This document shows positions 9,695-63,047 of a stretch of 64,000 nt of DNA, piece by piece (within the stretch, counting starts at the first letter, position 1; each line of letters begins with the position of its first letter). Source of the DNA: a virus; the IMG/VR virus record IMGVR_UViG_3300030390_002408. The stretch is one strand, 5' to 3'. A program made the translations under genes and the position numbers. The notes beneath the pieces were generated by a model. The model was given only the letters and a program-made list of their open reading frames with translations. It searched no databases and had not been told where the DNA came from.

Positions 9695-10489
9695 CTATTT
9701 TAAAAATTGATTAATTCTCATTTGGGCTTCTTCTTTAGACATAGTATATTCAATTACATCATCTATAAACTCATCATTTAACATTGATTGAATTTCACCT
9801 CTATCTTTGGCATTATTTTCTTCTGATTTCTTCTGTTGAGCAGGTGTTTTAGGTTTAGTTCCTTTGGGGGTAAATGGGGTTAGATATTTTTGTATTATTT
9901 TATCTATATCCTTAATCTTATCATCTAATGTATTGGCAACTGCTACAAAATTAGAGCCAAATAAATTGGCATATTTTTCTAGGTTTTGGGTTACACTCTT
10001 CCAAGTTCTCATTACAATAGCTGGAGCTAAACTTCTATCTTCACCTTTGGATTTTTCAAATCTATTTTGATTTTGTTGGAGTGATCTTTCTAAATCCGTA
10101 TAAACATAAAGCATAAATACATTGTATCCTGCTTCTTCTAACTGTAATTTTAATTCTGAAGTTTGTTTAAATGAAGCTGCTGTACCATCTAGTATAAATG
10201 ACTCTTTACCTTCAATTGTAGATTGAATATTACCTTTAAATTCTTTATTAGCATCAGCCATGGATTTAGCTTGACTACTTCTTTCTTCAGGGGTTGCATT
10301 TTTTAAATCTAATGTAATGTTAGCTTTTTTTAGCTTATCTATAAAGATACTATCAATATTTAATATTTTTATTCCCCCTAAATCTAAACCTTTAAGTACA
10401 TATCCTTTACCTGCTCCCGGGGCCCCAGCTAATATAATTGCTTTGGGGTTACCTTGAGATTCTTTTAGTAATTGAACTAAACTTATCAT
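9695..10489 (-). CDS. P-loop kinase (zeta-toxin/AAA_33-like)
   Basis: ILAGAPGAGKG Walker A; FILDGT; GYNVFMLYV; short leader MISLVQLLKE. Confidence 0.8.
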   Translation of the reverse strand: MISLVQLLKESQGNPKAIILAGAPGAGKGYVLKGLDLGGIKILNIDSIFIDKLKKANITLDLKNATPEERSSQAKSMADANKEFKGNIQSTIEGKESFILDGTAASFKQTSELKLQLEEAGYNVFMLYVYTDLERSLQQNQNRFEKSKGEDRSLAPAIVMRTWKSVTQNLEKYANLFGSNFVAVANTLDDKIKDIDKIIQKYLTPFTPKGTKPKTPAQQKKSEENNAKDRGEIQSMLNDEFIDDVIEYTMSKEEAQMRINQFLK

Positions 10490-10543: not shown

Positions 10544-11314
10544 TTATTTCATTTTTGCAGTAGTTTTGAAGGATTGTTCAAATGGTTTCTGTTTTGGATT
10601 TTCTAAATCAAATAATTTTTTCACTGTAGAAAATATATCTAAATTTTCTTCATATGAACGAGGTGATTCATACATTTCCCAACCTTTACCTTGCATTTTA
10701 CCCTTAGCAGGTTTTCTTTTATTTGATTTTAACCATAAAATTCCAAACCTATCAGGACGTACCCCAAAACATTCTTCATAACATTTACCATAAATAGCTG
10801 CTTGTAAGTCATAAGTGGTTTGAAGGTGGTTTGATGTTTTAAAATCAATAATCCATATTTCCTTATTAATCTCACAAACTAAATCACACGTTCCTGCAAC
10901 TTTTAACTCATCTGAAAATAAATGTACTTCTGCTTTTAATAAAGTTGGATTATACTCTTCCCACCAATCCACAAATTTAAGAAACATTTGCCATACTTTA
11001 GGTGTGAATTGAGGATAACCGTAATCATTTAAAAAATTTAATTCTTCCCCACCTAAATAAGATTCAATCATTTCATGAACTTGGGTACCTTCTTCTGCAG
11101 ATTTTTTAACTATATAATCAGCACTATATCCTACTTTTTTTAACCAATCTTCAAAAAATTTACCTTTTGGATAGGTTCCTAAAACATGAGTTATAGATGG
11201 ATAATATTCACCATTTCTTTGATAATACCTAGAATCTGGTAGGGTGATTTGTTTTGAATCTTCTGAAATTTGGAGAATTCTTTGATGGGTAGTTTTAATT
11301 GTTTTTTTCTTCAT
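10544..11314 (-). CDS. PD-(D/E)XK exonuclease (Cas4/RecB-like phage nuclease)
   Basis: YPSITHVL; GTQVH; AGTCDL...IIDFKTS; LQAAIY. Confidence 0.85.
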   Translation of the reverse strand: MKKKTIKTTHQRILQISEDSKQITLPDSRYYQRNGEYYPSITHVLGTYPKGKFFEDWLKKVGYSADYIVKKSAEEGTQVHEMIESYLGGEELNFLNDYGYPQFTPKVWQMFLKFVDWWEEYNPTLLKAEVHLFSDELKVAGTCDLVCEINKEIWIIDFKTSNHLQTTYDLQAAIYGKCYEECFGVRPDRFGILWLKSNKRKPAKGKMQGKGWEMYESPRSYEENLDIFSTVKKLFDLENPKQKPFEQSFKTTAKMK

Positions 11315-40231: not shown

Positions 40232-41041
40232 TTAAACAACATAATTTAAAGCAACTTCAAACAATTCACTATTGATCTTTTGATCTTGTCTAAAGTTTTT
40301 AATTCTTCTCGCTTTACGAACTTTACCAGCTGCTATGTAATTAAACTCACCTTCAATTATTTTTTCTTGAACTACATTAAATACTGACCATAAATCATTT
40401 CCTTGATCTTCAGGTCTTGTAGGTGTAAGTAATTCTTCTAAATCAATTTTAACTCTCTTCATTTCATCTTTATTGAAACGAGTTGTCAAACACTCTTTAG
40501 CAAAATCTAAAGCTTTTTTCTGCTCAAGTTGTGTTGATTTCATCATATTCATTGATTCAACAGTTAATGGTAATTTTTCAACCATTTCTCTAATATTTTC
40601 CTGTAAATCCTCAAATGTATATCCCATATGTCTCATTTTGACAGCTTCAAATTGTGTTGTTGCTATTACAAGACCATTAGCACAAACCAATCTGTATAAT
40701 CCAGCTTGAAACTGAAATGCATTTTTCCCATCATGGGAGTTAGTTAATAAAATTTGGGGATAAACTGTATCATTGTCATCACCATTAATAACAATATCAT
40801 CATTTCTAAAAACAACTAAGTGTTTTTGATATCCTTTACCTCTACGAGCTTGGACTTCTTGAACATTAATAACATCCCATCCTAAAGTTCTCATATCATC
40901 AATAACTTTAGTTGTTGGAATGTGTGTGTAATGTTTTGAAACCTCATCACTTGGAGATTTTGTAAAAACTGAAGGTGCTTTTTTAGCAATTTCTTCATTT
41001 GTCATAAACTTGTTTGATTTAATTTCACTTGCATTTACCAT
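40232..41041 (-). CDS. DUF932/DUF945-family protein
   Basis: ILLTNSHDG; GLYRLVCANGL; LWSVFNVVQE. Confidence 0.85.
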   Translation of the reverse strand: MVNASEIKSNKFMTNEEIAKKAPSVFTKSPSDEVSKHYTHIPTTKVIDDMRTLGWDVINVQEVQARRGKGYQKHLVVFRNDDIVINGDDNDTVYPQILLTNSHDGKNAFQFQAGLYRLVCANGLVIATTQFEAVKMRHMGYTFEDLQENIREMVEKLPLTVESMNMMKSTQLEQKKALDFAKECLTTRFNKDEMKRVKIDLEELLTPTRPEDQGNDLWSVFNVVQEKIIEGEFNYIAAGKVRKARRIKNFRQDQKINSELFEVALNYVV

Positions 41042-41085
41042 AACTCTTGATTTTTAAATATTTAATAATTAATAACTCATTTCTC

Positions 41086-41138
41086 TTACACCGTGAATAT
41101 ACGAATGGTTTCCTGGGGAGCCAAATTTTATTGGCGAG
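41086..41138 (-). promoter_or_regulatory. Early promoter repeat copy (Bacteroidota sigma70-like)
   Basis: Minus strand TTTGGC-N~15-TCGTATATTCACGGTGTAAG. Confidence 0.7.
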
Positions 41139-41337
41139 GAAGCTGATTTTCTTTTCTCATTTTTTCAAAATCAGGAACTAATTCATCCCCAACCTCACAA
41201 GTCCAATTTTCAGGATCTTCATCTTCAATTCTTTTTGTGAATTGATTAATTTCCTCATCTGTAGCATTTAAATATTTTTTTAAAATACTAATAACAATTT
41301 TTTTGTCTTCTTGAATCATTTTTTCACTTATTGCCAT
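41128..41337 (-). CDS. Hypothetical early protein ending QLPRQ
   Basis: 69 aa; own promoter and AAAATAAAGGTTATG start context. Confidence 0.65.
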   Translation of the reverse strand: MAISEKMIQEDKKIVISILKKYLNATDEEINQFTKRIEDEDPENWTCEVGDELVPDFEKMRKENQLPRQ

Positions 41338-41365
41338 AACCTTTATTTTTGCGCTGCTTAATCTT

Positions 41366-41425
41366 GCAACCTTACCCCATAAATATACAATAGAACCCTC
41401 AGGAAGCCAAATTTTATTGGCGAGG
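41366..41425 (-). promoter_or_regulatory. Early promoter repeat copy
   Basis: TTTGGCTTCCTGAGG...TGTATATTTATGGGGTAAGGTTGC. Confidence 0.7.
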
Positions 41426-44350: not shown

Positions 44351-45382
44351 TTATAAGTTATCAACCATTAACTGCATTTTTACATAATCAACGATATCTC
44401 TTTTAGCATGCTCTACCATACCGGGTTCGGTCATTGGTCCCATTTTCCATTCTTCCCAAGCGTTAATTAACATATTAATAGCTTTTTCAAACCTTGGCCC
44501 CATTGCTTCTACATACCCTCCTGCTAAATCATCAGAAACTTCATTTACTGATTTATCCATTCCCACTAAAGAATCTAATCTGTATTTCTCGGATTGTGTA
44601 ATATCCAACGGAATATACTCACTTCTTACATCATACCAATCATGTAATTTATCTTGATCTTCAAGACTAAGTACTGAAGTTGTATTTGTTATTGAGTATG
44701 TTACTTTTTCAATAAAATCATCTACATTACGAGAGGATTTGAAAGTTGAATTTAATAGATCTTTTAAATCATTATAAGCATAAGGCTCATAAATAACCTT
44801 ACCATCTTCATCTTCATATTCTCCTGTTATAGTATCAAAAACATCAGATAAAGAATCTAATTCGTTTAAAGATTTATTTTCTTTTAAAAAAGAAGAACCA
44901 TATTTTTGAGTATAAATTTGATTTGCTTCATCTTCTATTTTATCATAATTTCTTAAACTTTTTGGATCAAAAGCATCAAAATTATTTTGTTTTTTCACCT
45001 GATCAAGTATCTTTTCCCAATCTTGCCTTTCTTTAAAAGAAAAACCAAACTCTTCCCTATAGGCTTCATCTTTCATATTACCCTCTTCATCATAAAAATC
45101 TGGATTATCATATGGGTCTATATATTGTTCTTCTCTAGTTTCTTTTAATGATTTAAATTTATCTAATAGCATTTCTAATTCCTCTGGGTTATTTTTCTCC
45201 CAATTTTCCCATTTACCCTCATATTTGTCAAGTAATACTCCTGCTACTTCTTCTTGCCATTTATCCCCATATTTATTGGAGGGATCCATAAAGCCCATTT
45301 CAAGTTCAAATGCTCTATTTGCTAGATCTTCTTTTAATAGCTTACCTTCTGTTAGGAATTTTTTTAAGTCAAATTTGTCCAT
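44351..45382 (-). CDS. Late protein with shared MDKFDLKKFLTEGKLLKE leader; mosaic
   Basis: Leader identical to that of 62123-62572; late motif 45403-45411. Confidence 0.7.
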   Translation of the reverse strand: MDKFDLKKFLTEGKLLKEDLANRAFELEMGFMDPSNKYGDKWQEEVAGVLLDKYEGKWENWEKNNPEELEMLLDKFKSLKETREEQYIDPYDNPDFYDEEGNMKDEAYREEFGFSFKERQDWEKILDQVKKQNNFDAFDPKSLRNYDKIEDEANQIYTQKYGSSFLKENKSLNELDSLSDVFDTITGEYEDEDGKVIYEPYAYNDLKDLLNSTFKSSRNVDDFIEKVTYSITNTTSVLSLEDQDKLHDWYDVRSEYIPLDITQSEKYRLDSLVGMDKSVNEVSDDLAGGYVEAMGPRFEKAINMLINAWEEWKMGPMTEPGMVEHAKRDIVDYVKMQLMVDNL

Positions 45383-46583: not shown

Positions 46584-46769
46584 CTATATTTTGTGTACAA
46601 ATCTTTTTAAAAACTCTCCTGCTATTTCCTCCATTTTTACATGATCATTCGTAAATGCCCTTCGCATTATGCCTTGGGGGAGAGTATTTTTACTACCTTC
46701 TTTTACATTTTGGGAAAAGTTATCTTGAACCCACGTCCCAAATGCTTCTAAAACTTCTTTACTTCGCAT
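46584..46769 (-). CDS. Microgene of junction array 1
   Basis: Starts in CAAAACAAAGATG junction. Confidence 0.6.
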   Translation of the reverse strand: MRSKEVLEAFGTWVQDNFSQNVKEGSKNTLPQGIMRRAFTNDHVKMEEIAGEFLKRFVHKI

Positions 46770-46947
46770 CTTTGTTTTGGTTTAATTGTTCTAACATCAT
46801 TTCTAATGTTTCGTCTAATATAGATAGATTGTGAAACTCCTTGATATCTTTGTACGCTTCTAATGTTACTTTAGATTTTCCTTTTACAATAAACCCTGAT
46901 TCATCTGTCAATGTGATGTTAATGTTTAATTTTTCTTCTTTACTCAT
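46759..46947 (-). CDS. Microgene of junction array 1 (MSKEE...QNKDAK)
   Basis: Both ends lie in the junction motif. Confidence 0.65.
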   Translation of the reverse strand: MSKEEKLNINITLTDESGFIVKGKSKVTLEAYKDIKEFHNLSILDETLEMMLEQLNQNKDAK

Positions 46948-47134
46948 CTTTGTTTTGGTTTATATAATTATTACTAATAATATCCCAAGCAATATCACTA
47001 TTAGGTGTTTTAATTGTCATCATATGACCCATTCTCATTTTATGGTCAATTAGTATTTCACAATTATTTTTATTTAAAAAAGACATTAACATCTGATAGT
47101 CTTTATTTTTAACATTTGTATCAACTTTACTCAT
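46940..47134 (-). CDS. Microgene of junction array 1 (MSKV...QNKDE)
   Basis: Both ends lie in the junction motif. Confidence 0.65.
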   Translation of the reverse strand: MSKVDTNVKNKDYQMLMSFLNKNNCEILIDHKMRMGHMMTIKTPNSDIAWDIISNNYINQNKDE

Positions 47135-47457
47135 CTTTGTTTTATTTTATACATCTCTTTTAACCGTTCTATAATCTTTTTACTAACTATTGACATATCA
47201 ATATCTTCATGAAAAGTGAATTCTTTCTTTTTATTAACATTACCAATAACCACCTTCTCACCTTTAATCGTTGCGTATATTAGTTTACTCAATTCTTTTC
47301 TTTTTAATCTCTGTTCTAATAATTCTTTAAGAACTTCCTGCCCTTTTGGTTTTATCTTTTCTGCCGTTTTAGCATCATAGATTCCATAAATACTATTACC
47401 TAAGATTCCATAAATTTGATTCCAATTTGGATATTCTTTATTTTCTTTACTCATCAT
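47131..47457 (-). CDS. Microgene of junction array 1 (MSKE...KQR)
   Basis: Both ends lie in the junction motif. Confidence 0.65.
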   Translation of the reverse strand: MMSKENKEYPNWNQIYGILGNSIYGIYDAKTAEKIKPKGQEVLKELLEQRLKRKELSKLIYATIKGEKVVIGNVNKKKEFTFHEDIDMSIVSKKIIERLKEMYKIKQR

Positions 47458-47659
47458 CTTTTTGATTTAAATCCTTTATTTTTTTAACAACACTATTCCA
47501 AGCATTTTGTATTTGTTCATATTCTTCTGGAAAGTATTCTTCTGATATTTCTAAACCATCTACAGTTGTGAAATAACCTATACCTGGTCTAAGTGGTATT
47601 ATGTTACTACCTAATAATTGTAGGTGTTGATATTGTTCTTTAATATATTCTTTATTCAT
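47447..47659 (-). CDS. Microgene of junction array 1 (MNKE...QKDDE)
   Basis: Degenerate junction motifs at both ends. Confidence 0.6.
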   Translation of the reverse strand: MNKEYIKEQYQHLQLLGSNIIPLRPGIGYFTTVDGLEISEEYFPEEYEQIQNAWNSVVKKIKDLNQKDDE

Positions 47660-47671
47660 CTTCTTTTTTGT

Positions 47672-47878
47672 TTAAATCCAACCTAAAATTTCTTCATCAA
47701 ATTCTTCTCTTGTTCCAAAATGCTCTTTAATCCTTACTTCAAGACATTCCATTTCAAACCCATTAAACATTTGATTGATTAGTCTAGTTTCTTTTATCTC
47801 AAGGTGTTGAAGATGATTTTTTCTTCTTTTATCTAACCAAACAGTGGTTAATTCAATATATTCTCTTCGTCGTTTCAT
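47672..47878 (-). CDS. Hypothetical protein
   Basis: 68-aa ORF. Confidence 0.55.
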   Translation of the reverse strand: MKRRREYIELTTVWLDKRRKNHLQHLEIKETRLINQMFNGFEMECLEVRIKEHFGTREEFDEEILGWI

Positions 47879-47949
47879 TTTTTCCTTATTAACTCAACTA
47901 TTACTTCAATTAACATCCATGTTAAAAGTATTATTCCTGCTATCTCCAA

Positions 47950-48153
47950 TTACTTCTTTTTTAGATTCATTAAAAAATCATCTGCATATTCTCTTGCAAT
48001 TTGCTTCATTTCAACCCTCTCACCCGTAGTAATCCTAATCATTTCTTCGTGTGGTTTCTTAGGGTTAGGAAGATTTTCTGGGGTTCTAGTAAAGTTTTTG
48101 TCAACCCACTTCCATAAATTCTTCTGCTCCATTGTGTCTTTAAATTTTCCCAT
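47950..48153 (-). CDS. Hypothetical protein
   Basis: 67-aa ORF. Confidence 0.6.
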   Translation of the reverse strand: MGKFKDTMEQKNLWKWVDKNFTRTPENLPNPKKPHEEMIRITTGERVEMKQIAREYADDFLMNLKKK

Positions 48154-48159
48154 TAGTAA

Positions 48160-48375
48160 TTATGAAAACCAAATTTCATCAAATGATTTTTCTGCTTCCT
48201 CTGAAGTTTCATATACCCCAATTATTGATCGCATAGTGTTGTCTGTAGGTAAAAACTCAATTTTATTACTAATCCTTTCAACTTTAACAATGTTGTTAAG
48301 GTTTACTAGAACATCATTATATTCATCTTTTGAATTTATGTTTTTCTTTATTTTAACCTTTATAAAATTTCCCAT
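48160..48375 (-). CDS. Hypothetical protein
   Basis: 71 aa; AAGGTTATG start context. Confidence 0.6.
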   Translation of the reverse strand: MGNFIKVKIKKNINSKDEYNDVLVNLNNIVKVERISNKIEFLPTDNTMRSIIGVYETSEEAEKSFDEIWFS

Positions 48376-48387
48376 AACCTTATTTAT

Positions 48388-48588
48388 TTAATTGTTATAA
48401 ATGAATTCCATTACCTTTTCAATCCCCGCAGCTTTATTTACGTATTCTGCTGCTTTTTTTAGATGAAGATCTCTCAATCCAAATTCATCTTTTGGCATTG
48501 AATCTAACTCATTGAGTTGATCATTAGCCATTTCTAAATAACTTTTGTGCATTTGGTCTACAAACGCTTTTATTTCTGTAACTTCCAT
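48388..48588 (-). CDS. Hypothetical protein
   Basis: 66 aa; AAGTTATG start context. Confidence 0.6.
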   Translation of the reverse strand: MEVTEIKAFVDQMHKSYLEMANDQLNELDSMPKDEFGLRDLHLKKAAEYVNKAAGIEKVMEFIYNN

Positions 48589-48599
48589 AACTTATTTTT

Positions 48600-48761
48600 T
48601 TATTTTATTTTAAGTAACTTTTTTATTCTCTCCCTTTCATCTGTATCAATATCTACCAAACCATTAGACATACTTCGGTAGTAAAATTGACTTAATAAAC
48701 TAGACATTTCCTTAGCTTCTTCTGCGATTTTTTCTTTTAATTCTTTTTCTTCTTCTTTCAT
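48600..48761 (-). CDS. Microgene MKEEEKELKEKIAEEAKE... (53 aa)
   Basis: Manual translation; AAGGTTATG context. Confidence 0.6.
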   Translation of the reverse strand: MKEEEKELKEKIAEEAKEMSSLLSQFYYRSMSNGLVDIDTDERERIKKLLKIK

Positions 48762-48776
48762 AACCTTAATTTTTAT

Positions 48777-48932
48777 TTATCCATTAAAATGTGAAATTAA
48801 CTCTTTAAATTCATCTAATGTAATTATGTTTTGTTTTACCCACATATAAATCATTTTTAAGTGGTTCCCTCCATTAGATTGTTCTTTTTCTAACCTTTTT
48901 TTATAATCTTCAATTTTGTATTTATCAATCAT
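48777..48932 (-). CDS. Microgene MIDKYKIEDYKK... (51 aa)
   Basis: Manual translation; AAAGGTTATG context. Confidence 0.6.
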   Translation of the reverse strand: MIDKYKIEDYKKRLEKEQSNGGNHLKMIYMWVKQNIITLDEFKELISHFNG

Positions 48933-48949
48933 AACCTTTGTTTTTATTT

Positions 48950-49093
48950 TTAGTACAAATCTTTTAATGCACTTCTTAGTAATTTCATTATTTGCTTGTC
49001 TCTTTTATTAGTACTACCTGCTAATAATGCCAATGCTTCTTTAATAGCTTCTTCTGCGATTTTTTCTCTTAATTCTTTTTCTTCTTCTTTCAT
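48950..49093 (-). CDS. Microgene MKEEEKELREKIAEEAIKE... (47 aa)
   Basis: Manual translation; first gene behind the early promoter at about 49120-49170. Confidence 0.6.
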   Translation of the reverse strand: MKEEEKELREKIAEEAIKEALALLAGSTNKRDKQIMKLLRSALKDLY

Positions 49094-49118
49094 AACCTTT
49101 GTTTTTAATGCTCGGCGC

Positions 49119-49168
49119 TCCCTGCAACCTTACCCCTAAATATACGATTAATTTATTGGGGAGCCTAA
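49119..49168 (-). promoter_or_regulatory. Early promoter repeat copy
   Basis: TTAGGC...TCGTATATTTAGGGGTAAGGTTGCAGG. Confidence 0.7.
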
Positions 49169-49376
49169 TTATATCGCAATTGTTTTTAGTATATTTGTAT
49201 ATACTAATCGGTGGTGTAAAATCGTGTTCGAACTAAACTTACACCTAAGCCCTTTTTTTGCACCGCCACGTATCGATGGACATCAGCGCGCGATGGGTAT
49301 AATGTATATTATAATATATGCGTGCGTATGCCACAATATAGTTATATCACATTACGCAGTACGGCAAACCATAATA

Positions 49377-49406
49377 CGGGGTAGGGGGGGAATTACCCCC
49401 ATCCCG
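49377..49406 (-). terminator. GC-rich hairpin downstream of the gene ending at 49422 (probable terminator)
   Basis: cggggtagggggg-aatt-acccccatcccg imperfect inverted repeat. Confidence 0.45.
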
Positions 49407-49421
49407 AGGTTATGATTAGGT

Positions 49422-49937
49422 TTACTTTGTGATCTTAAATGCGGACTCAACCGGTCTTCTATAACCATCAAATCTATAATTACCATTATCTATTAACACA
49501 CCATCCTTAATTACTAGAGCATGCTTATGAACAATAATGAAATAAGTACCACGTGTGAACTTCTGCATGAATGACTTCACCGTATAAGCAACTGCTTTAT
49601 GTGTGTAACTCTCATTCTGAAGCGTACCACCATCTTTTGGTCTATCACCTAAGTGTCTAATATTAAATTTATTCTCCATCACCGGTGCAAATAAATCTAA
49701 TTGACCCTCAGCTTTGAATGTTACCTCATTCATCCCCTTCAATATTGGATTCACATTAAATGTACCTTGTCTATTTTTTCTCTTGAAAACATTCTTAGCA
49801 AACTCATGAGCCGTATTATAACTAATTTCAAATGCATTTGCAAATGCTCTTACAGCACAATCACCTTTTTCACTCGTAGCGATTTCATTGTTTATACTAA
49901 CTCCGTAACCTGCTTTAAATACTTTTTGATCTAACAT
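49422..49937 (-). CDS. Hypothetical early phage protein (DCAVRA...H motif)
   Basis: 171 aa; own early promoter. Confidence 0.7.
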   Translation of the reverse strand: MLDQKVFKAGYGVSINNEIATSEKGDCAVRAFANAFEISYNTAHEFAKNVFKRKNRQGTFNVNPILKGMNEVTFKAEGQLDLFAPVMENKFNIRHLGDRPKDGGTLQNESYTHKAVAYTVKSFMQKFTRGTYFIIVHKHALVIKDGVLIDNGNYRFDGYRRPVESAFKITK

Positions 49938-49983
49938 AACCTTTATTTTTAAAATTTATAATTAACAATTGTTGCTTTCCTAA

Positions 49984-50054
49984 CCCTGCAACCTTACCCC
50001 GTAAATATACGATCGCTTCCTCGCTAAGCCTACCCTCCCCGCAATTACCTTCAA
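49984..50054 (-). promoter_or_regulatory. Early promoter repeat copy
   Basis: TTGAAGGTAATTGC...TAGGCT...TCGTATATTTACGGGGTAAGGTTGCAGGG. Confidence 0.75.
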
Positions 50055-50055
50055 C

Positions 50056-50232
50056 TTACTTTCGATTGGGGTTGAATCGGGTTAACTTATAATAATGGTT
50101 AGTTAAACGATTGTACGTCCAAAATTTTTCCCTTTGCTTATTAGTCGGGGTATTATTATATGATCTCTCATCCATTTCAAAATCACTTACTAGCGCGTCA
50201 ATTACTTCTTTTCTACTACTAAATCTCTTCAT
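50056..50232 (-). CDS. Microgene MKRFSSRKEVIDAL... (58 aa)
   Basis: Manual translation. Confidence 0.5.
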   Translation of the reverse strand: MKRFSSRKEVIDALVSDFEMDERSYNNTPTNKQREKFWTYNRLTNHYYKLTRFNPNRK

Positions 50233-50245
50233 ACTATGATTTTAC

Positions 50246-51025
50246 TTACTCTGCTGACATTGGCTCTGTGTAAAGGAAACCAACCTTATTCTTTTGATCT
50301 AAACTGAAAAACAATTTATTCATCTCACCACCACGTCTGTTTTTACTAAAGAAAATACATCTACCACCCTCAACAAATTTCATATGTCCCATTCCTGTTA
50401 GCATATGTTTGAATCTATTTGATCCTGCAAACTCACCACCTTTAGTTACTTGTTGGATGATCATGAATGAAGTATTTACACCGCTTGTGTTTTCAGCTTT
50501 GTTATGACGCTCTAAAATGTTTAAAACACGTGACTCAGCGTTTTTATTTGTACCACCATGGAAATCAACAATCGTTGTACAAACTTCAGCCATTGAATCG
50601 ATTAATACAACATCGTAACCTTCAGTTAATGTTGACTCAATTACTTGAATTGGATCATTTTCAATATAATCACCTAAGAATAAAATTGGTAACGCTCCAA
50701 ATTTAGGATATCTTTTAACGTAACCGTATAAATCAATTGAATTCATCTCACCTGAAATGAATAATACTTTAGCACCTTTAGCTTGTAAATCTGCTAGCAC
50801 GTCTAACATTACTGTAGATTTTCCAACTCCTGGATCTCCAACGAATGCATAATTGGTACCTTTCATTAACCCACCTTCACTTGAAAGCATTGAATCTAAT
50901 CTACCACCTGTTTTCATAGGAATAAATAAATTATCATCAAATGATAAATTATCCATTTTTACCAATTTTGGCATTACAAATTCAACTTTCTTACTTGGAC
51001 GACCTCTTTTAACCATATTTTTCAT
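50246..51025 (-). CDS. RadA/Sms-like RecA-superfamily ATPase
   Basis: GDPGVGKST; LFISGE; VVLIDS; QVTKGGEFAG. Confidence 0.85.
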   Translation of the reverse strand: MKNMVKRGRPSKKVEFVMPKLVKMDNLSFDDNLFIPMKTGGRLDSMLSSEGGLMKGTNYAFVGDPGVGKSTVMLDVLADLQAKGAKVLFISGEMNSIDLYGYVKRYPKFGALPILFLGDYIENDPIQVIESTLTEGYDVVLIDSMAEVCTTIVDFHGGTNKNAESRVLNILERHNKAENTSGVNTSFMIIQQVTKGGEFAGSNRFKHMLTGMGHMKFVEGGRCIFFSKNRRGGEMNKLFFSLDQKNKVGFLYTEPMSAE

Positions 51026-51057
51026 AACCTTTATTTTTTTAAATTTTTAACCGCTCT

Positions 51058-51130
51058 AACCCCTCATCCCTTACCCCGTAAATATACGATCGCTCCCTAG
51101 GAAAGCCAAATCTTCTGGCAGGCGTCTTCA
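51058..51130 (-). promoter_or_regulatory. Early promoter repeat copy
   Basis: TTTGGC...TCGTATATTTACGGGGTAAG. Confidence 0.75.
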
Positions 51131-51142
51131 AGAAAAAGTAAG

Positions 51143-51237
51143 AAAAGGTGGCCTGACTTGTAACCAGATCCGTACTAATTCTAGAACCCAAACACATAGC
51201 AAAACCATTTTGCTAGCAGGTTAATGTAGCACCTTTT
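51143..51237 (-). ncRNA. Putative structured RNA A (T-arm-like hairpin next to closing stem)
   Basis: AAAAGGTG/CACCTTTT closure; TAGCAAAA/TTTTGCTA hairpin; TCTGG-TTACAAG-TCAGG. Confidence 0.45.
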
Positions 51238-51258
51238 ATTACTAGAAATTAATTAAAT

Positions 51259-51457
51259 AAACTCTCCAAGTCCTCCAAGTGGAATATCATGCCGTATGAC
51301 CATGCTTTACTATACGGTTTCAAGTCAGTTTAAAGCCTTTCCATCTACCTAACTTCAAAAGCGTTGCACCCTTGGTTGTGCCCTAATAGAGGAGGGTTGC
51401 CGATTTATTCACCCTAATTTGACCTATCACTTACTTATCCATTAGCTTGGAGAGTTT
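51259..51457 (-). ncRNA. Putative structured RNA B (~200 nt)
   Basis: Perfect 12-bp terminal inverted repeat AAACTCTCCAAG/CTTGGAGAGTTT; internal CCGTAT/ATACGG and CCCT/AGGG stems; GC above flanks. Confidence 0.5.
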
Positions 51458-51461
51458 AAAA

Positions 51462-51557
51462 TAGTAATAGTCGTATCAACTAGCATCGGTGCTTTCAAGT
51501 CTTCTAAGATACCTCTTATCTTGCGGAACCTCCCCGTAACCCTCTGCTATATTACTA
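51462..51557 (-). ncRNA. Putative structured RNA C (multibranch)
   Basis: TAGTAATA/TATTACTA closure; TAGCA/TGCTA and AAGATA/TATCTT stems. Confidence 0.45.
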
Positions 51558-51595
51558 CTTATTTTCAATTATTTAAAGAACGTAATTAATTTTGT

Positions 51596-51652
51596 ACCTA
51601 TCCCTGAATCGAACATGGGTCAGAACTAGTTCTCCTAGCAACCAGCATAGGC
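51596..51652 (-). ncRNA. tRNA-like element D (non-canonical)
   Basis: GCCTAT/ATAGGT acceptor-like stem; TTCGATT T-loop; AGAACTAGTTCT palindrome. Confidence 0.5.
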
Positions 51653-51654
51653 TA

Positions 51655-51723
51655 TTAATGAGGGGTTGGGATCGAACCAACTCGAAGGAACTGCATCTTC
51701 TTAAACCATAATTTCCTCATTAA
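51655..51723 (-). ncRNA. tRNA-like element E (pseudo-tRNA)
   Basis: TTAATGAGG/CCTCATTAA closure; GTTGG-TTCGATC-CCAAC canonical T arm; GAAG/CTTC stem with non-canonical loop. Confidence 0.55.
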
Positions 51724-51726
51724 CAT

Positions 51727-51746
51727 CAATACTTTCAATGAACTCT
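51727..51746 (-). promoter_or_regulatory. boxA-like antitermination element (second copy 51566-51583)
   Basis: AGAGTTCATTGAAAGTATTG and ACGTTCTTTAAATAATTG resemble rrn boxA (GYTCWTTRA...ATTG). Confidence 0.45.
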
Positions 51747-51756
51747 ATTTATTAAA

Positions 51757-52047
51757 TTATATCCAATCAGGGGTGGGTTTTCCAAACTCAGGTATTGCTT
51801 CAAAAAAATTATGGAAAAATGGCTCTAATGATGGGCTACCTTCCTCTATCAATAACTGATAAACCCTACCATCAAACTCAAATATTCCCTCCTCTGGGCT
51901 TACCACCTCAATTATTCCTGGAGTCATAACTCTATCTAAATAATCTGTTTCTCCAAAATCTCCTTCATTCAATGAAGTTAATTTAATATCACTTCCTACA
52001 ATTCTCATTTTCATACCTTTTTCAACACTTTTCATAACTTTTTTCAT
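51757..52047 (-). CDS. Hypothetical early protein
   Basis: 96 aa; behind tandem early promoters. Confidence 0.65.
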   Translation of the reverse strand: MKKVMKSVEKGMKMRIVGSDIKLTSLNEGDFGETDYLDRVMTPGIIEVVSPEEGIFEFDGRVYQLLIEEGSPSLEPFFHNFFEAIPEFGKPTPDWI

Positions 52048-52077
52048 AACCTTTATTTTTTAAATTTTTAATCCGTT

Positions 52078-52225
52078 TAACCCCTCAACCCCAACACCGT
52101 AAATATACGATGAATATCTCGCTTCTCCAAATCTTTCTGCAATTATCTTCAATGAACTTTTTAAACCCGTCTAACCCCTCAACCTTACCCCGTAAATATA
52201 CGGTGAAACCCCCGGGAAGCCACAT
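52078..52225 (-). promoter_or_regulatory. Two tandem early promoter repeat copies
   Basis: Cores AAATATACG (+) at 52101 and 52194, with flanking AACCCCTCAACC repeat. Confidence 0.75.
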
Positions 52226-52477
52226 TCTCCCGCGGGGATCGCGTGGGGAGTTGTGAACCGTGGGGTGTTCACAATATATACTCTTTTCGTAGAGGAGAGT
52301 TTGGGGGCGCGGTGAAAAGGGGGTAATGTCCCCAGAACTCTACCCCATCCGCTCCACCACGTGTTATCACATACTATTTGACTATACATTGTGTTTAACA
52401 CATAACACTAATCGTTTAACACACTTCATCGCCCCTATTATTTAATTCGCATTATGACACTCATTTAACGTGGAAAA

Positions 52478-52999
52478 TCATGAATGATTTCGTAATAAAT
52501 CAATTAATTGCTTCAACTCACCACTCGTCATTATTACCTCTTCATCATTTGATTCAAATATCCTATCCTTTTTTAACCCAATCTCATTAAACCAATCATT
52601 CAATTTAAATTCCTTTAAATGGTAATCTATCCCAATCCATCCCTCTGTTAAATGTTTAACTTCTCGTAGATGAGTAATATAATTAATTGCTTCTTTTACC
52701 TTATCATCCGTCCACACCCAATTACCTGTCCAAGTGGGGTTATCAGTTATGTTATTCTCCATCGTAATATTATTTTTATCATTTATTTTCTCCGTCGCTG
52801 GATTATTATCATTATTTCTCCTCTTCAACATATTGAAATTTCCTTTTGGTTCTGTTTTAGATTTTTTGATTTTTTTTAATTCTGATTCTAGTTGATATTT
52901 ATATTCTTCCCAAATTAATCTTCCTCCTTTACCCCATCTAAAAGCATGGTGACATAGTTCCTCAATTTCTTCTAATGTGAATGTTTCTTCTTTACTCAT
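52478..52999 (-). CDS. Hypothetical protein, last gene of junction array 2 (possibly fused microgenes)
   Basis: MSKEE start in junction motif. Confidence 0.55.
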   Translation of the reverse strand: MSKEETFTLEEIEELCHHAFRWGKGGRLIWEEYKYQLESELKKIKKSKTEPKGNFNMLKRRNNDNNPATEKINDKNNITMENNITDNPTWTGNWVWTDDKVKEAINYITHLREVKHLTEGWIGIDYHLKEFKLNDWFNEIGLKKDRIFESNDEEVIMTSGELKQLIDLLRNHS

Positions 53000-53205
53000 T
53001 TGTCTTTTGGTTTTAATTGATAATACTTATATGGTCCAGACCAGTTATCTTCATTATGCTCTACCATGTAAAACCAATCACCAATACTATCTAGTGTTTT
53101 AATTGCTTCATATTTCACTGGATTAACATCCTTATAGACTATCTTACCTTCACCCCTTGGTGTTGTAACTACATTTCCAACTTCATATATTATTTCTTTA
53201 CTCAT
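52996..53205 (-). CDS. Microgene of junction array 2 (SH3-like: YEVGNVVTTPRGEGKI)
   Basis: MSKE start in junction motif. Confidence 0.6.
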   Translation of the reverse strand: MSKEIIYEVGNVVTTPRGEGKIVYKDVNPVKYEAIKTLDSIGDWFYMVEHNEDNWSGPYKYYQLKPKDK

Positions 53206-53227
53206 CTTTGTTTTTGTTTAATTTCAA

Positions 53228-53401
53228 TTACCTCATCTCATCAATTTCCCTTTGGGTTACTACCACTAACTTATCCCTTTCGATATCCCACCTAACGTAC
53301 CCATCCGCTTCTAACTTGAGTAATTTTGTGAAGAAATCATTCTCGATGTGGTAATCTACTTCACCGTCGTCCATTTCATTATCTTCATTGCTGGATTTCA
53401 T
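53228..53401 (-). CDS. Microgene MKSSNEDNEM... (57 aa)
   Basis: Manual translation; ATGA overlap with upstream gene. Confidence 0.55.
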   Translation of the reverse strand: MKSSNEDNEMDDGEVDYHIENDFFTKLLKLEADGYVRWDIERDKLVVVTQREIDEMR

Positions 53402-53703
53402 ATCGTTGTCTCTCCTCTATTTGGTTCTTGGTTTAAAATGTTAATCCTATTTAAATCAGCATATATAGAAGGTGTTGAGTATGTTTTTAAGTCTATTGCT
53501 CCATACTCTTTTCTATACTTCTCATACAATACTTTTCTCTTGGATTCTAGTAATTGCATTTCTTGGGAGAGTTTAATCCACTCTTTATTTAATTCGTCTT
53601 TCGTCATCTTCTTTGTTTTTGTAGCAAATTCTGCTATTGGAATAGTTTTAGGAAATACTCTTTTAAGTATTGGTAATGATGGTCCTTTCTTTTCCTTACT
53701 CAT
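53398..53703 (-). CDS. Microgene of junction array 2 (start MSKEKKG)
   Basis: Junction-motif ATG at 53703 preferred over track start 53730. Confidence 0.6.
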   Translation of the reverse strand: MSKEKKGPSLPILKRVFPKTIPIAEFATKTKKMTKDELNKEWIKLSQEMQLLESKRKVLYEKYRKEYGAIDLKTYSTPSIYADLNRINILNQEPNRGETTI

Positions 53704-53971
53704 CTTTATTTTGTTTTTTAAAGTTCTCAATATTTTTCATGGTAACACTTATCAGGTAAGTATCCTCCATTATTTGACCCTTCTTCTTAAAGTGTTCAAT
53801 TGTTTCTATATGAGATTCTACTAATATTTTAAGTCTATTCTCAGGAGAAATATTATACTTATCAAATAGTTCCATTACTGGTTTAAATGATTCTTCTCTT
53901 ACCTTTTTTAATTCTTCTTCTAATATATTACTTAGTATATTTGCTACGTCTAATGGTTCTTCTTTACTCAT
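53696..53971 (-). CDS. Microgene of junction array 2 (MSKEE...QNKDE)
   Basis: Both ends lie in the junction motif. Confidence 0.65.
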   Translation of the reverse strand: MSKEEPLDVANILSNILEEELKKVREESFKPVMELFDKYNISPENRLKILVESHIETIEHFKKKGQIMEDTYLISVTMKNIENFKKQNKDE

Positions 53972-54027
53972 CTTTGTTTACGTTTACGTGTTTTTTCATA
54001 CTTGCCCATCAAAACTAACTTTGATAT

Positions 54028-54177
54028 CTAAGGTATATAAAGTATTGGACCACCAACTTCCTTGTAATGTTCGTCAGGCATTTCCATTTCTTCGTTAATA
54101 ATTTCTTTAGGTATAGAATCAATTAATTTATAATCTTCTTCTTTTACTTCTAATAATAAAAATTTTCTTTTACTCAT
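54028..54177 (-). CDS. Microgene MSKRKFLLLE... (49 aa; possibly truncated by TAG)
   Basis: Manual translation; frame stays open after TAG to the junction TGA at 53968. Confidence 0.45.
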   Translation of the reverse strand: MSKRKFLLLEVKEEDYKLIDSIPKEIINEEMEMPDEHYKEVGGPILYIP

Positions 54178-54189
54178 CTTTGTTTTGTT

Positions 54190-54336
54190 TTATTTCCAAT
54201 AACTTCCATCGTAAATATCACTATGGTGTTGCTCCTCTTTATTGCATATTCTACAGTGTCTCTCCACTATTCTCCCAAATTTATACTCCCATCTATGTAT
54301 GCCAATTTTACATAATATTAATCTAAGTTTTTTCAT
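54190..54336 (-). CDS. Small Zn-binding DUF1660-like protein (48 aa)
   Basis: LCKIGIHRW...HCRIC. Confidence 0.6.
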   Translation of the reverse strand: MKKLRLILCKIGIHRWEYKFGRIVERHCRICNKEEQHHSDIYDGSYWK

Positions 54337-56751: not shown

Positions 56752-56832
56752 TGTTGCGTTCCCTGCAACCTTACCCCGTAAATATACGATTGCTTCCTCA
56801 GGAAGCCTAATATTTCCGCGGGAGTCTTCAAA
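56752..56832 (-). promoter_or_regulatory. Early promoter repeat copy with palindromic spacer and 5'-leader hairpin
   Basis: TTAGGCTTCCTGAGGAAGCAATCGTATATTTACGGGGTAAGGTTGCAGGGAACGCAAC. Confidence 0.75.
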
Positions 56833-61849: not shown

Positions 61850-61999
61850 CTAATTTAAATTATTTTTTATTTCAACTAATAAACATTTACCATTTTCACC
61901 AGTAACTAATTTAAAATTAGTTTCAACTTTTGACTCTTCCTTTACTGTTGGGAAATTTTGAATTAAATCTTCAACCCTTATTTTTTTTCTTGCTTTCAT
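61850..61999 (-). CDS. Microgene (true start MKARKK)
   Basis: AAAATAAAGGTTATG at 61999; the track's longer start overlaps the promoter at 62030-62068. Confidence 0.55.
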   Translation of the reverse strand: MKARKKIRVEDLIQNFPTVKEESKVETNFKLVTGENGKCLLVEIKNNLN

Positions 62000-62061
62000 A
62001 ACCTTTATTTTTAATCGCTCGAACCAATCGAACACCGTGAATATACGAAAGGGAATTGGGG

Positions 62062-62122: not shown

Positions 62123-62572
62123 TCATGTATAGTAATTTTGTGATAATCCAAAATGTCTATTCGTCAATGATGTGTCTGGTTTATTTGAAATCTTTTTTAG
62201 ATTTGATAATACACTGTCGTAGTTTTCTTGGTTATTTGCATTGAAAATTTCCATATTTAAGTCCTCTCCCTTTATTGGCATATGATAAATAACATAGTGT
62301 TCATATTTTTTCTCCTTTCTATTTGGATATTTAACCTCATAATCAATAGAAATTTTATCTCCAACATCAAAGTAATCTTTAAATCCATTATGAAATGATT
62401 TAGTTACTTCATAGGTTCCCACTACTGAACGATTTACTATTTTTTTATCTTTATCTTTTTTCTTGAAAAGATTTAAAAATTTATCTTTAAGGCCTTCATC
62501 TATTTTAGTATATTTTTCTTCTTTTAATAGCTTACCTTCAGTTAGGAATTTTTTTAAATCAAATTTATCCAT
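62123..62572 (-). CDS. Late protein with MDKFDLKKFLTEGKLLKE leader
   Basis: Leader identical to that of 44351-45382. Confidence 0.7.
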   Translation of the reverse strand: MDKFDLKKFLTEGKLLKEEKYTKIDEGLKDKFLNLFKKKDKDKKIVNRSVVGTYEVTKSFHNGFKDYFDVGDKISIDYEVKYPNRKEKKYEHYVIYHMPIKGEDLNMEIFNANNQENYDSVLSNLKKISNKPDTSLTNRHFGLSQNYYT

Positions 62573-62582
62573 TATATTTTTT

Positions 62583-63047
62583 TTATCTATGTATTTTATT
62601 TTCTTCTCCTTGAATTAATTCACCTTTTGATGTAAAGATCATAGGACCATAAATATCATAAGATTTCTTTGAATTAAAAACAACCTTCATATTATCTACT
62701 ACTTTACGCATAGCTGATAAGGATTCCATAAAAAGGAAATATTCACCTGTTCTCCTTCTATCATCAAATAAATTAACACTCCCAAATCGATTTAAATCCA
62801 TTCCAGCTGTTATTTCTTCTATCATGTTAGATAATTCAAACCTTTTAGGTTTTTTTACTTTATCATCTTCACTTTGACCAAAATCATCACGATTTATCCA
62901 TACTCCATAATAATCAGTAGCATTATTAACATTAAATCCTTCTAACCATGGTGAATAAATAGATTTAGGTTTTCTTACTTCATTCACTGATGTTATTTTT
63001 AATAATTTATTTTCAGCTAAGTATTTCTTTAAATCAAATTTATCCAT
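62583..63047 (-). CDS. Late protein with MDKFDLKKYLAENKLLK leader
   Basis: Paralogous leader; late motif 63061-63069. Confidence 0.7.
   Translation of the reverse strand: MDKFDLKKYLAENKLLKITSVNEVRKPKSIYSPWLEGFNVNNATDYYGVWINRDDFGQSEDDKVKKPKRFELSNMIEEITAGMDLNRFGSVNLFDDRRRTGEYFLFMESLSAMRKVVDNMKVVFNSKKSYDIYGPMIFTSKGELIQGEENKIHR

Follow-up and report, generated by a model that had tools for sequence, protein, structure and literature searches.

In large phages the majority of genes are tiny ORFans whose role is unknown, and little is understood of how such genes are acquired and kept expressed. This question is raised by a stretch of viral DNA of 64,000 nucleotides (nt), IMG/VR record IMGVR_UViG_3300030390_002408 (hereafter the window), in which two arrays of microgenes are punctuated by one short repeated sequence that we call the junction. 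The junction lies where one small gene ends and the next begins. The explanation that we favour, with moderate confidence, is that it acts as a stop/restart signal lacking a Shine-Dalgarno (SD) sequence, and that the same 26 nt serve as microhomology for the shuffling of gene cassettes.

Junction copies and microgene arrays in the window

The junction consensus, TTAAACCAAAACAAAGATGAGTAAAG, is 26 nt long and extends from -16 to +9 around an ATG. A scan of the window with the 19-mer AAAACAAAGATGAGTAAAG, allowing up to three mismatches and taking the expectation from shuffles, returned nine matches (46938, 47125, 47445, 47650, 52990, 53196, 53694, 53962 and 54168), compared with 0.14 expected and at most two in any shuffle. 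All nine are on the minus strand and fall into two clusters. Together with a tenth copy at 46757-46785, which contains a 3-nt insertion (ATG CGA AGT AAA), they bear out a preliminary description of the sequence, which had listed ten minus-strand copies in two clusters. An eleventh, decayed copy is found in frame within the gene 53703-53398, with an internal ATG at 53607.

Each of the ten copies supplies the ATG of an open reading frame (ORF) of 49-173 amino acids (aa), and at eight of the ten junctions a stop inside the motif terminates the upstream gene, much as had been proposed. These stops cover all three frames: a TAA at -15 (frame 0), the TGA of an ATGA (+1) and a TAA at +5. Two window genes end at the TGA (+1), four at a TAA (+5 or +8), two at the TAA at -15 and two outside the motif. 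The preliminary description had recognised stops in two frames, both of which are seen here, and had overlooked the third, the TAA at -15.

Array 2 (52478-54177, minus strand) is made up of the genes 54177-54028, 53971-53696, 53703-53398, 53401-53228 (which has no motif), 53205-52996 and 52999-52478. Following the direction of the genes, copy 1 (54168-54193, ATG 54177) terminates the upstream gene 54336-54190 at the TAA at -15, and copy 2 (53962-53987, ATG 53971) is preceded by a gene that ends 56 nt earlier, outside the motif. At copy 3 (53694-53719, ATG 53703) the upstream gene stops at the TAA at +5. The decayed copy (53598-53623) follows, and copy 4 (53196-53221, ATG 53205) marks the left edge of a cassette shared with the metagenome contig L182. 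The right edge of that cassette is copy 5 (52990-53015, ATG 52999, three mismatches), where the upstream stop is the TGA of ATGA.

Array 1 (46584-47659, minus strand) consists of the genes 47659-47447, 47457-47131, 47134-46940, 46947-46759 and 46769-46584. Copy 6 (47650-47675, ATG 47659, three mismatches) provides a TAA at -15 and forms the left edge of a cassette shared with L011. Copy 7 (47445-47470) ends the upstream gene at +5 and has its motif ATG at 47454, the first ATG of the ORF being at 47457. The exact 19-mer is present in copy 8 (47125-47150, ATG 47134), which stops the upstream gene at the TGA of ATGA and is the left edge of a cassette shared with L074, and in copy 9 (46938-46963, ATG 46947), which uses the TAA at +5. 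Copy 10 (46757-46785, ATG 46769) has its 3-nt insertion directly after the ATG, and its gene begins with MRSK.

The array genes of the window are mutually unrelated, as the preliminary description had stated. No function can be assigned to them, since searches of Pfam and PHROGs with all array genes gave no family above threshold; a role in anti-defence or host takeover is only a guess. A total of 370 motif-headed ORFs, collected more widely, grouped into 250 families, 179 of them singletons. Paralogues within one array are almost completely lacking, and growth of the arrays by tandem duplication was rejected on that ground. The pooled ratio of nonsynonymous to synonymous polymorphism (pN/pS) over 27 homologous cassette pairs is 0.32, and the cassettes therefore encode proteins under purifying selection. 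Finally, the decayed copy at ATG 53607 aligns with an intact junction that heads a separate 69-aa gene in the contigs L182 and L184. The 101-aa window gene 53398-53703 (minus strand) is therefore a read-through fusion, in which a short motif-headed ORF continues in frame across the decayed junction into a homologue of the 69-aa gene.

Consensus, start context and predicted structure of the junction

Consensus and stop usage were determined from 306 unique (non-identical) junction instances in fetched IMG/VR loci. Two blocks are conserved although they lay outside the search pattern, TTAA at -16 to -13 (59-92%) and AGTAAA at +3 to +8 (66-96%), and there is no conservation past -17 or +14. The upstream ORF ends at +5 in 64 cases, at +1 in 46 and at -15 in 40; the three in-motif stop frames are used about equally. 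Stops at -15, +1 and +5 give rise to gene gaps of +12, -4 and -8, which are the gaps that dominate at junctions.

Adenine occupies positions -3, -6, -12 and -13 in 92-100% of the junction copies, and adenines at these four positions promote initiation in F. johnsoniae (PMC6847099). Across the gene starts of the window there is an adenine peak at -12, and an SD core occurs between -18 and -4 at 2 of 99 starts, compared with 6.4 at random positions. Such a peak, combined with scarcity of SD sequences, is the signature of Bacteroidia start sites (PMC6847099). The motif itself contains neither GGAG nor AGGAG. The junction region is A/C-rich on one strand, non-palindromic and predicted to be wholly unpaired (fold z-score -0.18), and no dyad symmetry or hairpin was predicted in or around it. 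A promoter was considered and rejected as the main reading of the junction, given the constant distance to the ATG and the absence of any conservation further upstream than -17.

Exchange of cassettes at the junction

The closest comparisons are with L182 and L184, whose flanking genes are 85-92% identical to the window at the nucleotide level. The number of motif-headed genes between the 48-aa gene (54336-54190) and a conserved non-coding stretch is five in the window, six in L182 and two in L184. As far as the ATGAGTAAA of the first junction these sequences agree at about 92% identity, and directly after it they are unrelated (case A5). The cassette 53205-52996 is about 93% identical (BLAST) to L182 1122-1337 from junction to junction, with unrelated DNA on both sides (case A6); its homologue precedes the MKSS gene in L182, whereas the cassette follows the MKSS gene in the window. 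In L184, array 1 has been replaced wholesale save for its last gene.

Single cassettes are also shared with more distant genomes. L074 (record G005) carries the cassette 47134-46940 at 94% nucleotide identity, compared with about 72% for a structural gene that it shares with the window (case A1), and the cassette 47659-47447 is 83% identical in L011/G001, with core proteins of G001 being 25-41% identical to those of the window at the amino acid level (case A2). In both, homology runs from junction to junction and the neighbours are unrelated. Among other contigs, L095 carries two extra junction-flanked cassettes relative to L057 and L027 (case A3), and L070 and L083 differ by the replacement of one cassette with two, between flanks that are 97-99% identical (case A4). 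The best protein match between records G004 and G003 is an array cassette (79% aa identity). These comparisons, in the window's own lineage and in other contigs, uphold that part of the preliminary description which saw a combined junction where microgenes are gained, lost, replaced and moved.

To quantify breakpoints, we took the internal ends of high-scoring segment pairs (HSPs) with at least 80% identity among the motif-bearing loci and counted an end as near a junction when it lay within 25 nt. By this measure 148 of 290 homology ends are at a junction, compared with 13.5 expected and a maximum of 22 in 200 randomisations, a count in which short shared cassettes necessarily end at both junctions. 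A homology end falls at 49% of the motif-headed starts of small genes; the corresponding figures are 11% for the remaining small genes and 2% for large genes. Because the motif was used to gather the loci, ascertainment affects the comparison of 49% with the 11% control. Relative to the junction, homology starts cluster at -20 to -11 and stops at 0 to +14. Of the homologous cassette pairs, 23 have neither neighbour homologous and 32 are syntenic.

Distribution across phages and hosts

The junction is not used at the structural and replication genes of the window. Relatives retrieved from IMG/VR through the RecA/KaiC-like ATPase of the window (59-81% aa identity) lack a junction copy near the ATPase gene in 24 of 26 cases, and these relatives, like the Flavobacterium phage immuto, use a different start context, AAAATAAAGGTTATG, instead. 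No junction copy was found in immuto. The exact 19-mer occurs in 105 IMG/VR stretches, and at least 56 fetched stretches have between 3 and 27 junction copies, all on one strand.

Five large records (G001-G005) each contain one compact junction cluster. It is located at 20.0-23.1 kb of 125 kb in G001, mostly in the last 5 kb of 103 kb in G002, and at 114.7-116.4 kb of 156 kb in G004; G003 (the 241,918-bp record of L032) has the largest array, with about 25-30 copies, about 25 of which are within its first 6.2 kb. The backbones around these arrays are very different. Identity of the baseplate wedge protein to that of the window is 60% in G004 and G005, 33% in G002 and 25% in G001, with none detectable in G003, and large terminases (TerL) are 27-31% identical between array-bearing backbones. 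A 1310-aa protein of G003 has a counterpart of 81.5% identity in the uncultured phage LR745206.1 (634,780 bp), and the largest Mahaphage members are predicted to infect Bacteroidetes (PMC7162821). The protein match makes it likely that G003 is a fragment of a Mahaphage-like marine megaphage. No junction copy occurs in the closest relatives of G003, the huge phages LR745206.1 and LR756502.1.

Outside these records, cultured phages gave only single chance matches to a 32-nt query (E ≥ 0.3). A 24-mer had no match in 596 Gb of prokaryote genomes (185,579 species genomes), and a 20-mer had five matches in the same cellular genomes, four of them within stretches holding 2-5 junction copies. The metagenome-assembled genome (MAG) bins of these contigs (L172-L176, stretches of 30% G+C) are as disparate as Microbacteriaceae, Promethearchaeia, Campylobacteraceae and Aenigmatarchaeota; most likely the contigs are mis-binned phage DNA and provide no host evidence. 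A literature search on the motif string found nothing relevant. The junction word is thus confined to phages and to arrays, patchy within lineages and common to different lineages. The motif scan and the comparison of gene order suggested in the preliminary description therefore do not refute it: gene order differs among relatives, and the motif does not serve as a start context throughout the genome.

A second start context and promoter-like repeats

The start context AAAATAAAGGTTATG (class A), with the fuller form AAAAATAAAGGTTATG, is a real and separate element, as had been noted earlier. It has 15 copies in the window compared with 1.5 expected, on the minus strand, for example at 41335-41349, 49935-49949, 51023-51037, 52045-52059 and 61997-62011. 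At -3 and -4 it has G in place of A, an unusual feature for a start site of Bacteroidia. The same context occurs in the ATPase-locus relatives (L106-L131), in G004 and in phage immuto (15 copies vs 4 in the control); it is absent from G001-G003 and confined to the immuto family.

A promoter-like repeat, TCGTATATTTACGGGGTAAGG, is present in seven window copies vs none expected, all on the minus strand (41084-41104, 41370-41390, 49992-50012, 51069-51089, 52090-52110, 52183-52203 and 56769-56789), and its core CGTATATT occurs at further sites (46540, 49139, 61419 and 62040). Each repeat is positioned 30-60 nt ahead of a gene with the AAAATAAAGGTTATG context and includes TATATTTA, which is close to the Bacteroidetes -7 box TAnnTTTG. 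The repeat appears to delimit early transcription units. No such element was found inside either array; the arrays end units bounded by successive CGTATATT elements. More specifically, array 2 is the promoter-distal end of the unit between the elements at 56788 and 52202, and array 1 that of the unit between 49146 and 46547.

Search for dedicated machinery

The preliminary description had likened the arrays to integron cassettes and had named the ATPase and a DUF932 protein as candidate machinery. A search for tyrosine recombinases (PF00589) gave no match in G001-G005, of which G004 is 96% complete, while the control genomes all matched. No recombinase was detected among the roughly 40 window proteins tested on Pfam, and a serine recombinase (resolvase) was found only in G001, 22 kb from its array. 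Proteins common to all array-bearing genomes are only generic ones such as the large terminase. Matches to G003 were obtained for 19 of 244 G004 proteins; those that match both G003 and G001 include the large terminase and two proteins without a Pfam hit, none of them located at the arrays.

The ATPase and DUF932 genes are core genes that also occur in relatives without the junction, and for that reason they are not array-specific machinery. With neither an integrase nor a hairpin at the unpaired, non-palindromic site, the system is not an integron, and the integron-like part of the earlier proposal falls away. The lack of a recombinase, the nature of the site and the lack of a common protein together favour general homologous recombination.

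Translational signal, microhomology and alternative explanations

Under the explanation we favour, RNA copied from a junction would terminate the upstream frame, whichever of the three it arrives in, and would present an unstructured start whose AUG has a constant position and is preceded by adenines at -3, -6, -12 and -13. There a ribosome would terminate and restart, or load afresh, with no need of a promoter or SD sequence for each gene. This translational role is suggested by the invariant spacing to the ATG, the equal use of the three stops, the adenines known from Bacteroidia and the unstructured, promoter-free arrays. At the DNA level, 26-bp direct repeats common to different phages would act as microhomology through which general homologous recombination, during replication or co-infection, may delete, insert, replace or move whole genes at the junction. 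Cassette gain, loss and movement would thus probably proceed by ordinary recombination, and any cassette landing in an array would automatically be terminated and expressed. The motif would travel with the cassettes, which would explain both its presence in unrelated backbones and its absence from close relatives.

Several points weigh against this explanation. A number of window copies are degenerate, with three mismatches, and two junctions end the upstream gene outside the in-motif stops. An optimal start site should also occur at highly expressed structural genes and in host genomes, and the motif is found at neither. Because of this, a generic A-rich start does not account for the conserved C-11, C-10, C-5 and G-1, to which a factor could bind. 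Random recombination combined with selection for intact genes would also leave breakpoints at gene boundaries, and the ascertainment described above touches the comparison of gene starts. Furthermore, no isolate carries the junction motif, so the host assignment rests on relatives only, and every assigned function is inferred from sequence.

The junction could be a translation signal only, that is, a strong SD-less start with termination-reinitiation that was inherited or has converged, the mosaicism being a product of selection at gene boundaries. Such a signal would account for the fixed ATG spacing, for adenines at the positions favoured in Bacteroidia (PMC6847099), for the predicted unpaired state and for arrays without internal promoters. 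The class A start context is likewise enriched at homology ends (80 of 471, compared with 19.5 expected), as if any gene junction attracted breakpoints. It fits poorly, however, with the occurrence of the same 26 nt in unrelated backbones and their absence from close relatives of these, with a motif unused at structural genes and without a 24-mer match in the 596 Gb of cellular genomes, and with shared segments that extend from motif edge to motif edge. In addition, breakpoints are 4.5 times as frequent at motif-headed starts as at the starts of other small genes. We regard a purely translational signal as rather unlikely.

A site-specific cassette system, integron-like or other, would make the junction the site of a dedicated recombinase or nuclease encoded by phage or host. 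Cassette-sized, co-oriented and promoterless units that are gained, lost and moved exactly at a conserved site are what such a system would produce; the conserved non-A positions C-11, C-10, C-5 and G-1 would suggest specific recognition, and the distribution across lineages is patchy. Against this stand the missing tyrosine recombinase in G001-G005 (one of them 96% complete), the single serine recombinase 22 kb from the G001 array, the negative Pfam result for the window proteins, a site with neither dyad symmetry nor hairpin, and a shared protein set that contains only generic members; we consider such a system very unlikely. In a broader version of this idea, decidedly speculative, the junction would be the address label of a cassette commons among marine Bacteroidota phages that are otherwise unrelated, ranging from myoviruses of 150 kb to a relative of the 634-kb megaphages, and would be recognised by a dedicated factor (a recombination or nicking enzyme, or a translation factor). 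If true, the commons would correspond in phages to the integron, with a coding stop/start site taking the place of the folded attC.

Equally improbable to us as a dedicated recombinase site is an operator for a trans-acting regulator, either an RNA-binding repressor like RegA of phage T4 or a small RNA, with recombination as a by-product. The operators of T4 RegA overlap initiation regions, and the junction resembles them in being a sequence-specific block, from -16 to +9, that spans the start codon on only a subset of early genes. No candidate regulator is common to the array-bearing genomes, though, nor was an Rfam family found in the window, and regulation would leave the equal use of three-frame in-motif stops unexplained.

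The window phage and its other elements

The window has a G+C content of 30%, and nearly all of its ORFs are on the minus strand. Its baseplate wedge protein is 47% identical to the homologue in the cultured Flavobacterium phage vB_FspM_immuto. Other genes encode a thymidylate synthase, a UvdE endonuclease, a primase-like Toprim protein, a PD-(D/E)XK nuclease, the RecA/KaiC-like ATPase (50246-51025) and the DUF932 protein (40232-41041). We take the window to come from an uncultured marine myovirus in the immuto family, whose host would probably be a Bacteroidota bacterium that does not use SD sequences. A megablast search of the region against 50,697 phage records gave no match, and tRNA and Rfam scans of the window were both empty; a permissive Rfam scan of 49000-52600 returned only a chance snoRNA-like match (E 0.14).

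The PD-(D/E)XK nuclease (10544-11314, minus strand) and the ATPase are candidates for general recombination functions. The nuclease gene adjoins a gene for a Zeta-toxin-like P-loop kinase (9695-10489, minus strand; Pfam E 1.5e-18). Three minus-strand genes (44351-45382, 62123-62572 and 62583-63047) share the N-terminus MDKFDL, and L184 9732-9799, where the homologue of 45382-44351 begins, matches a 68-nt stretch at about 62517-62584 with 94% identity. On this evidence the MDKFDL genes look like a paralogous family with a conserved 5' end.

Two non-coding regions are also conserved. A 146-nt element (51427-51572, inside the non-coding region 51040-51750) recurs at 94.5% identity in G002, a phage with no more than 33% identity to the window in its wedge protein, and at 90-98% in L179, L181, L183 and L184. 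Relative to the ATPase gene, the element lies upstream in the window, L179 and L181, and downstream in L183 and L184. No Rfam match was obtained for the element, and its fold is no better than that of shuffles (z -0.16); it may be a mobile non-coding module. The second region, 49187-49339, is kept at 70-72% identity in many family members (L055, L069, L104, L108, L109, L111-L113 and L120).

Relation to known systems and significance

The junction is best read as a variant of the closest known systems, the promoter early stem-loops (PeSLs) of T4-type phages and the start-associated sequences (SASs) of mycobacteriophages. Like the junction, PeSLs (PMC2839356, PMC4122927) are short conserved motifs repeated between small non-essential ORFans in the hyperplastic early regions of large myoviruses. 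Where related phages differ by an indel or a replacement, the breakpoints fall in the motif, as in cases A3-A6 and at 148 of 290 homology ends here; the newly joined gene stays expressed, and no dedicated recombinase is involved. This logic of shuffling by microhomology has been shown experimentally for the T4-type PeSLs (PMC2839356), which also give rise to excised mini-circles by recombination between neighbouring motifs. In contrast, a PeSL is intergenic and consists of a sigma70-like promoter and a terminator stem-loop, whereas the 26-nt junction has no promoter boxes and no predicted stem-loop, overlaps both coding regions and would act in translation. It is also common to unrelated phage lineages.

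The SASs of Cluster K mycobacteriophages (PMC3203893) are likewise asymmetric repeats in one orientation at the start codons of some non-structural genes. In some cases the upstream stop lies within an SAS; the genes that SASs precede belong to different families, host genomes lack the repeat, and a role in initiation has been proposed for it. However, an SAS is 13 bp long with an AGGAG SD core, lies 3-7 bp before the start and is restricted to one phage cluster, with no shuffling reported. The junction lacks an SD, takes in the ATG together with the first codons, provides a stop for each of the three frames, occurs in tandem arrays and is found in different lineages, with backbones of 0-33% wedge identity. 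With the Kozak-like, SD-independent initiation of Bacteroidia (PMC6847099) it has in common the adenines at -3, -6, -12 and -13, the low structure and the missing SD; that initiation is a loose preference of host genes, while the junction is an exact 26-nt word with fixed C and G positions, limited to phage microgene arrays.

Integron cassettes (IntI, attI, attC) resemble the arrays as co-oriented, promoterless and unrelated small genes that are gained or lost as units at a repeated site. Here no IntI and no attC-type imperfect inverted repeat were found, and the repeat is a coding and translation signal instead of a folded site. Lambdoid phages have short linker sequences, conserved at module borders, that have been proposed as recombination points, and overlaps of stop and start (ATGA or TAATG) are a classical sign of coupled translation. 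As in coupled overlapping cistrons, the upstream stop at junctions overlaps or abuts the next start, with gaps of -4, -8 and +12 and in-motif stops at 8 of 10 window junctions. The lambdoid linkers and the ATGA/TAATG overlaps differ in being lineage-bound and far less regular, and none joins a three-frame stop, a start and identity across lineages. Particular to the present case is an SD-less junction with stops in three frames that is identical across unrelated marine phage backbones.

For the biology of these phages, a pool of at least 250 microgene families (370 cassettes) can be recognised by one exact and searchable word, and its cassettes pass as single genes between lineages with almost nothing else in common. 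The three-frame stops and the SD-less start would explain how a newcomer can be expressed immediately in hosts that ignore Shine-Dalgarno sequences. The junction offers a handle with which to catalogue the mobile early-gene pool of marine Bacteroidota phages, including candidates for takeover and counter-defence functions. It also provides a natural test case for SD-independent reinitiation, and may represent a second, translational version of the principle of modular shuffling known from PeSLs.

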